Origin: Escherichia phage Turkey3
Reading direction: 5' to 3' (one strand)
Sequence record: PQ471515.1
Length of the DNA stretch: 64,000 nucleotides
Shown: positions 32,446 through 33,744 of the stretch, one piece after another
Numbering within the stretch: position 1 is the first letter of the stretch
Layout: every line of letters starts with the position of its first letter
Program-made: the position numbers and the translations under genes
The notes under the pieces: generated by a model
What the model was told of the DNA's origin: nothing
Database searches by the model: none
What the model saw: the letters and a program-made list of their open reading frames with translations, nothing else

Positions 32446-33744
32446 ATGCCAGCTAAAAAAACAACTGAACAATTCATTAAAGACGCAAAAGAAAAAAGAA
32501 CTGACATTGATTTTGATTATAGTAAAGTTAATTATATTAATTCTTTTACAAAAGTAACTATTATTGATCCTGAATTTGGTGAGTTTGATATTACACCCAA
32601 TCACTTTTTAAGTGGTAGTGGGCATCCTATCCGTGGTGGTTCATCTAAAAAAACAACAGAACAATTTATTAAAGACGCGAAAGAAAAAAGAACTGATATT
32701 GATTTTGAATATAGTAAAGCGGTGTACGTTAATTATAGAACAAAAGTAACTATTATAGATCCTGAATATGGTGAGTTCAGTGTTACACCAAGCAACTTTT
32801 TAAGTGGTAGTGGGCATCCTTCTAGATCTATTAATAACGATATTGTAAAAAAAACAAAAACAACAGAACAATTTATTAAAGAAGCAAAAGAAAAGAGATC
32901 TGACATTGATTTTGATTATAGTAAAGTTAATTATATTAATACTAAAACAAAAGTAACTATTATTGATCCTGAATTTGGTGAGTTTGATATTACACCGAAA
33001 AGCTTTTTAAGTGGTAGTGGGCATCCTATCCGTGGTGGTTCATCTAAAAAAACAACAGAACAATTTATTAAAGACGCGAAAGAAAAAAGAACTGATATTG
33101 ATTTTGAATATAGTAAAGTTAACTATGTTAATAACAAAACAAAAGTAACTGTTATAGATCCTGAATATGGTGAGTTCGATATTACACCTAATAGTTTTTT
33201 ACGTGGCTGTGGGCATCCTAGAAGGGGAGGTAAAGCTAAAAAAACAACAGAACAATTTATTAAAGACGCGAAAGAAAAAAGAACTGATATTGATTTTGAA
33301 TATAGTAAAGTTAACTATGTTAATAACAAAACAAAAGTAACTGTTATAGATCCTGAATATGGTGAGTTCAGTGTTACACCAGATGATTTTTTAAGAGGTA
33401 GTGGGCATCCATTGCGTGCAGGTTATTCCCAGCAATATGCATATGTTAACATTATTTCAGACAACGATTTACCTATTGCTTTAAAATATGGTATTGAAAA
33501 ACAAAAAGGAAAACGTGTTAAGCAACAAAATAAAAAATCATTATTTAAAGTAAAACTAATTTGTGTATATAGTTTCCCAACTGTGATAAATTGTAAGGAA
33601 GCAGAAAAAGAATGCAAGAGACTATTTGGTAATGGTATCTTGTCTAAAAAAGAAATGCCAGATGGATATACAGAAACAACTACAATCACTAATTTAGAAA
33701 AAATTTTATCGATCTATGAAAAGTGGGGTGGTGTAAAACAATAG
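32446..33744 (+). CDS. tandem-repeat protein: five ~64-aa repeats plus a Cys/Lys-rich C-terminal domain
   Basis: repeat KKTTEQFIKDAKEKRTDIDF(D/E)YSKVNY(I/V)N...KVT(I/V)IDPE(F/Y)GEF(D/S)(I/V)TP..FL.GSGHP x5. Confidence 0.7.
   Translation: MPAKKTTEQFIKDAKEKRTDIDFDYSKVNYINSFTKVTIIDPEFGEFDITPNHFLSGSGHPIRGGSSKKTTEQFIKDAKEKRTDIDFEYSKAVYVNYRTKVTIIDPEYGEFSVTPSNFLSGSGHPSRSINNDIVKKTKTTEQFIKEAKEKRSDIDFDYSKVNYINTKTKVTIIDPEFGEFDITPKSFLSGSGHPIRGGSSKKTTEQFIKDAKEKRTDIDFEYSKVNYVNNKTKVTVIDPEYGEFDITPNSFLRGCGHPRRGGKAKKTTEQFIKDAKEKRTDIDFEYSKVNYVNNKTKVTVIDPEYGEFSVTPDDFLRGSGHPLRAGYSQQYAYVNIISDNDLPIALKYGIEKQKGKRVKQQNKKSLFKVKLICVYSFPTVINCKEAEKECKRLFGNGILSKKEMPDGYTETTTITNLEKILSIYEKWGGVKQ
32455..33420 (+). repeat. 5 tandem in-frame repeats of ~192-198 bp
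   Basis: copies starting near 33049 and 33241 are nearly identical in nucleotides; the others diverge. Confidence 0.7.

Follow-up and report, generated by a model that had tools for sequence, protein, structure and literature searches.

The putative DNA-binding array of a homing-endonuclease-like protein from Escherichia phage Turkey3 appears, as read from its sequence, to be a zinc-free form of a known treble-clef module, with a four- to five-residue replacement set shared across the modules of its sub-family. It is this form that is new; the gene class is already known and its presence in Turkey3 is ordinary. The gene (32446..33744, + strand) is an intact 432-aa ORF plus stop codon, carried by a 121Q/Rak2-like, 350-kb Asteriusvirus jumbo coliphage and preceded by a Shine-Dalgarno-like GGAG (32432..32435, + strand, by sequence reading) 10 nt 5' of the ATG at 32446. 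Its GC content is 29.5%, versus 34.8% across the 64-kb window (the whole stretch of DNA analyzed here). Five in-frame repeats of 64-69 aa each are followed by a 109-aa C-terminal domain, and the complete ORF, which encodes a T5orf172-class homing-endonuclease-like protein, matches phrog_559 (3.7e-78) and phrog_681 (3.8e-75), labeled "HNH endonuclease" and "endonuclease", respectively. The product has 3768 homologues with precomputed DUF723/DUF4379 assignments, and an exhaustive search returned 27,178 representative clusters of relatives. Neither the protein nor profiles of its two domains matched any PDB sequence, and Pfam and NCBIfam hits to Peptidase_C58/YopT, Muted, SLATT and RIO1, obtained with the protein and a single repeat, were rejected as spurious aggregate scores, because a weak local match is summed across the repeats.

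That this ORF carries five in-frame tandem repeats, as an earlier note on the same DNA had proposed, is borne out by the reading frame itself, by Tandem Repeats Finder (period 192 nt, 4.9 copies, 82% matches over 32453-33410, with an additional 399-nt super-period) and by a family repeat HMM matching every unit at E values of 1e-24 to 1e-26. The units begin at aa 6, 70, 139, 203 and 267, with lengths of 64/69/64/64/64 aa. In the differing register of our feature boundaries, all on the + strand, repeat 1 spans aa 4-67 (32455..32646), repeat 2, with a linker 5 aa longer, aa 68-136 (32647..32853), repeat 3 aa 137-200 (32854..33045), repeat 4 aa 201-264 (33046..33237) and repeat 5 aa 265-323 (33238..33414). 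Pairwise identity among the five is 76-90% for protein and 82-92.5% for DNA. The last two had been described as nearly identical at the nucleotide level, which holds for one perfect 134-nt run covering their 5' two thirds, linker included, beyond which they diverge, leaving only 87-90% identity overall; repeats 1 and 3 are at least as similar over their full length (91-92.5%). Neither tblastn nor HMM searches of six-frame ORFs found paralogues of the repeat or of the nuclease domain elsewhere in the window.

The repeats share ancestry with the DUF723/DUF4379/CapR treble-clef zinc-finger module found in nucleases of phages and giant viruses, and both profile and fold comparisons support the resemblance put forward in the earlier note. 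A profile of the zinc-less repeats aligns to one of Cys-bearing repeats with 99.9% probability (hhalign, E 5.9e-36), tblastn with a canonical Cys-bearing repeat matches five of five units at 59-61% identity (E about 1e-17), and a single repeat reaches phrog_559 at E 5e-9 and phrog_681 at E 4e-8. The canonical relatives, which read FI.KA..VHGDKYDYSKV.Y.N..TKV.IICPEHGEF.Q.P..HL.G.GCP.C, match Pfam DUF4379 ("probable treble clef zinc finger"), DUF723 and CapR above the gathering score. PF05265, PF14311 and PF21817 match neither the whole Turkey3 protein nor one repeat at E ≤ 10, other zinc-less relatives likewise go undetected by the Pfam CapR, DUF723 and DUF4379 models, and it takes family-specific profiles, or BLAST to Cys-bearing relatives, to see the link to the known module. 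A lack of profile similarity, which the earlier note had named as evidence against the kinship, is thus what Pfam returns at that threshold, but not what the family-specific searches return. An AlphaFold2 model of repeat 4 (pLDDT 82), comprising a helix (4-14), a hairpin (34-38/42-46) and two further helices (48-53 and 58-61), superposes on viral structures in BFVD with TM scores of 0.8-0.92 and about 1 Å rmsd; the matches include phage proteins labeled "restriction enzyme", T5orf172, GIY-YIG or "treble clef zinc finger" and proteins of mimivirus, megavirus and moumouvirus, and no solved structure matched. The model predicts that the repeat retains the treble-clef fold, namely a hairpin knuckle and a helix N-terminus.

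At the metal site itself, the canonical Cys-x2-His...Cys-x2-Cys arrangement is replaced in five of five repeats: the first Cys by Asp, the His by Tyr or Phe, the next Cys by His and the last by Arg, giving ligand columns D-F-H-R in repeats 1 and 3 and D-Y-H-R in repeats 2, 4 and 5. The repeat 4 model places Asp38 and Tyr41 in the turn of the hairpin, with His57 and Arg60 where helix 58-61 starts. Of the D, S and R previously assigned to the cysteine positions, Asp and Arg stand and one ligand had been mis-registered, whereas the suggestion that metal binding may be lost is supported because all four ligands are exchanged. The exchange is not peculiar to this protein: among 817 related repeats in a first sample, 636 read CHCC and about 155 D-[Y/F]-[H/N/S]-R, with position-1/position-4 pairs of C/C in 640 and D/R in 159, and an independent sample held 951 CHCC versus 37 D..R repeats, single-site variants being rare. 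A fifth column covaries with the ligand state, Lys/Arg in the "HGDK" turn giving way to Leu (Asp in the Turkey3 protein). Mixed arrays occur, with one CHCC unit amid D..R units, and rare CHCC units already bear the coupled Leu change.

Had the ligands been lost through decay, as the selfish gene degenerated and its DNA-binding domain died away, single ligands should have disappeared in a scattered fashion. Instead, about 160 of 166 zinc-less repeats, from numerous divergent proteins, have the same Asp and Arg, intermediates are almost absent, and 141 of 159 zinc-less repeats have another zinc-less repeat as nearest neighbor and so form a coherent clade. The surface positions free to vary coincide in the zinc-less and zinc forms, and the Turkey3 ORF is intact, although near copies are frameshifted in WPEC5, E9.1 and CMSTMSU and homing genes do cycle through invasion, decay and loss. 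We therefore hold decay to be extremely improbable. From the alignments, the replacement set presents itself as a conserved metal-free redesign. In CapR a fourfold Cys-to-Ser mutant loses DNA binding altogether (PMC8096241), and by analogy a module without metal might not function if the replacement residues failed to make up for it. Most probably, the metal's part in joining the knuckle to the helix N-terminus would be taken by an Asp-Arg ion pair packed on the aromatic residue. The fuller proposal, namely that the Zn(Cys3His) center was swapped in one concerted step for the ion pair and aromatic, with retention of the DNA-reading surface and interchangeability with zinc units within arrays, has in our judgment an even chance of being correct. 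If it is, phages possess a modular array for DNA recognition that has come to depend on neither zinc nor redox state, and the rare CHCC units with the coupled Leu would mark the evolutionary path toward it. Within the partial journal coverage of a literature search on DUF723, DUF4379 and treble-clef zinc loss, the zinc-less variant is undescribed.

The C-terminal domain (aa 324-432; 33415..33741, + strand) had been noted merely as 100 Cys/Lys-rich residues; homology and modeling instead indicate that it is a T5orf172/MUG113-type nuclease domain that adopts the GIY-YIG fold. Pfam MUG113 scores 18.3 bits (E 0.0036), below its 22.3 cut-off, and Pfam T5orf172 (PF10544) does not match the domain directly. 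The assignment is reached through relatives: identity to ICP1 TcgB and phi92 gp222 is 37-43% by tblastn, these proteins and P0123 clear the PF10544 or PF13455 threshold, and hhalign aligns the domain profile with TcgB over 106 columns at 99.7% probability (E 8.7e-27). The AlphaFold model of the domain (pLDDT 91), built on a shallow alignment of 25 sequences after a word-indexed homologue search had given 3 and then 19 proteins, has a b-b-a-b-a-a topology and predicts the three-stranded sheet with flanking helices of the GIY-YIG fold. Conserved residues of the domain are Y333, K347-Y348-G349, R357, E387 and D406-G407-Y408-T409-E410-T411; Y333, K347-Y348-G349, R357, E387 and E410 are invariant or nearly so, and K347, G349, R357, E387, G407, E410 and T411 are invariant across the 25 sequences. 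Candidates for the catalytic Glu are the two invariant ones, E387 and E410. In I-TevI the corresponding catalytic pair is R27 and E75; hhalign of the domain profile against a provisional I-TevI catalytic-domain sequence gave 0.4% probability, an uninformative value. In the T5orf172 nuclease Odn, which cuts DNA in vitro, mutation of the conserved Glu abolishes activity (PMC8263062).

The gene adjoins denV (UV repair), and among near relatives this one locus shows both presence/absence and allelic replacement. The slot is empty in BF17, holds unrelated small genes in 121Q, SHEFM2K and E9.1, a divergent 6-repeat allele in WPEC3 and CMSTMSU, and an expanded, frameshifted copy in WPEC5; relatives with the same nuclease domain carry 3, 4, 5, 6 or 7 repeats. 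Nothing convincing was found in the BF17 empty site by way of repeated sub-sites that the array might target. Comparison with relatives further delimits a haplotype-specific segment accompanying the gene (32113..32370, + strand), which comprises an alternative short denV 3' end (denV stops at 32146) and a 71-aa ORF (32162-32377); homology to BF17, 121Q, SHEFM2K and E9.1 ends at 32112-32128. The gene is bracketed by perfect 41-nt direct repeats, both on the + strand: a PeSL-type composite terminator/promoter element upstream (32368..32408, left arm) and a copy of it downstream (33752..33792, right arm), at which homology with the gene-less genomes restarts exactly. The upstream element contains the hairpin GGGTTGAC-TTCG-GTCAGCCC followed by a T-run, overlapped by a sigma-70 promoter (TTGACT-N18-TATAAT, 32374-32403) whose -10 box is preceded by TG. 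Six copies of the element occur in the window versus 0 expected by chance. The gene could alternatively move by nuclease-free recombination between these flanking repeats. In Asteriusvirus phages, the surroundings of denV are thus a hot spot for the turnover of nuclease genes, with repeated promoter/terminator elements at the borders.

Taken as a whole, the ORF is probably a free-standing T5orf172-class gene, homing-endonuclease-like and within the GIY-YIG superfamily; DNA binding by the array, nuclease activity and homing are inferred. By analogy with known enzymes, the N-terminal five-module array would bind an extended DNA target through a few contacts per module, and the C-terminal GIY-YIG-type domain would cleave nearby; in a mixed infection with a gene-less relative, the break would then be repaired off the gene-carrying genome, which would copy the gene along with its flanks, i.e., the denV 3' end, the 71-aa ORF and the promoter element. 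Experimental proof of homing is lacking even for the ICP1 T5orf172 genes (PMC10448857). Instead of promoting its own spread, such a sequence-specific nuclease might serve as a weapon, aimed at related phages in the same cell, at phage satellites or at host DNA. Precedent lies in ICP1 Odn, a T5orf172 nuclease retargeted at the PLE satellite, in which this type of nuclease domain has been put to new use alongside another kind of DNA-binding domain (PMC8263062), and related E. coli phage nucleases have been proposed to target satellites (PMC10448857); the Turkey3 gene, moreover, has its own strong early-type promoter. Its DNA-binding part, however, is a standard homing-type repeat array and not a satellite-borrowed RepA_N-type domain, the presence/absence and allelic turnover of the locus are typical of homing genes, and no PADLOC defense model matches the product, all of which makes the weapon role unlikely in our estimation, even if it and homing are not mutually exclusive.

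The intact nuclease domain, with its Tyr, Lys-Tyr-Gly, Arg and both Glu invariant or nearly so across 25 relatives, together with the confident GIY-YIG model, also bears on whether the protein might be a domesticated, non-cutting DNA-binding regulator, which we regard as very improbable. I-TevI does act as an autorepressor, and near-identical repeats might recognize the promoter/terminator elements, of which the window holds 6. PLE CapR, which has the module and no nuclease, would be another parallel: the module alone can work there as a transcriptional repressor (PMC8096241).

The array is of wider interest: it would be a clean natural example of a structural metal exchanged for side-chain interactions, in a module where removal of the cysteines kills DNA binding, as in CapR. 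A metal-free tandem DNA-binding module might also interest protein engineers. Because the zinc-less proteins evade the Pfam models used for annotation, they are annotated as "hypothetical" or under fortuitous names (YopT protease or RIO kinase, for example), and homing endonucleases in jumbo phages are consequently likely to be undercounted.

Loss of zinc from a treble clef has parallels: in the U-box, salt bridges and hydrogen bonds take the place of the metal. As in the U-box relative to the RING finger, the Turkey3 repeats appear to retain a small zinc-stabilized fold while the ligands become polar or charged residues; unlike the U-box, they form a putative DNA-binding array in a predicted phage nuclease, and the set Asp, Tyr/Phe, His/Asn/Ser and Arg is specific to the family. 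Treble clefs with lost zinc ligands also include many His-Me fingers and YlxR (PMC4999995). PLE CapR, a homologous module, binds DNA directly and sequence-specifically (Netter et al. 2021, PMC8096241), yet it is a single module without a nuclease and requires its four cysteines, of which the Turkey3 modules have 0/4. The flanking elements recall the PeSL cassettes of T4-like phages (Arbiol 2010, PMC2839356; Comeau 2014, PMC4122927), in which copies of a hairpin plus early promoter likewise bracket a gene and indels between relatives terminate at the elements; here, by contrast, the phage is an Asteriusvirus jumbo phage and only the right indel boundary meets an element.

The closest counterparts are ICP1 TcgB/gp130, gp165 and gp174 and phi92 gp222, which share the N-terminal array of ~60-aa modules and the C-terminal T5orf172 nuclease, are free-standing beside conserved genes, and have repeats that recombine at the nucleotide level and vary in number. 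This architecture and the recombination between repeats were described by Barth, Dunham and Seed 2023 (PMC10448857), who thereby also document the association of the module with homing-endonuclease-like proteins that the earlier note had mentioned. Unlike these genes, that of Turkey3 resides in an Asteriusvirus jumbo coliphage next to denV, and its modules all lack the four zinc ligands and are invisible to Pfam. More distantly, I-TevI and the T4 Seg proteins, encoded by free-standing or intron-borne genes of large lytic phages, similarly tether a GIY-YIG-type catalytic domain to a modular DNA-binding region, which in I-TevI has a small treble-clef-like zinc finger.

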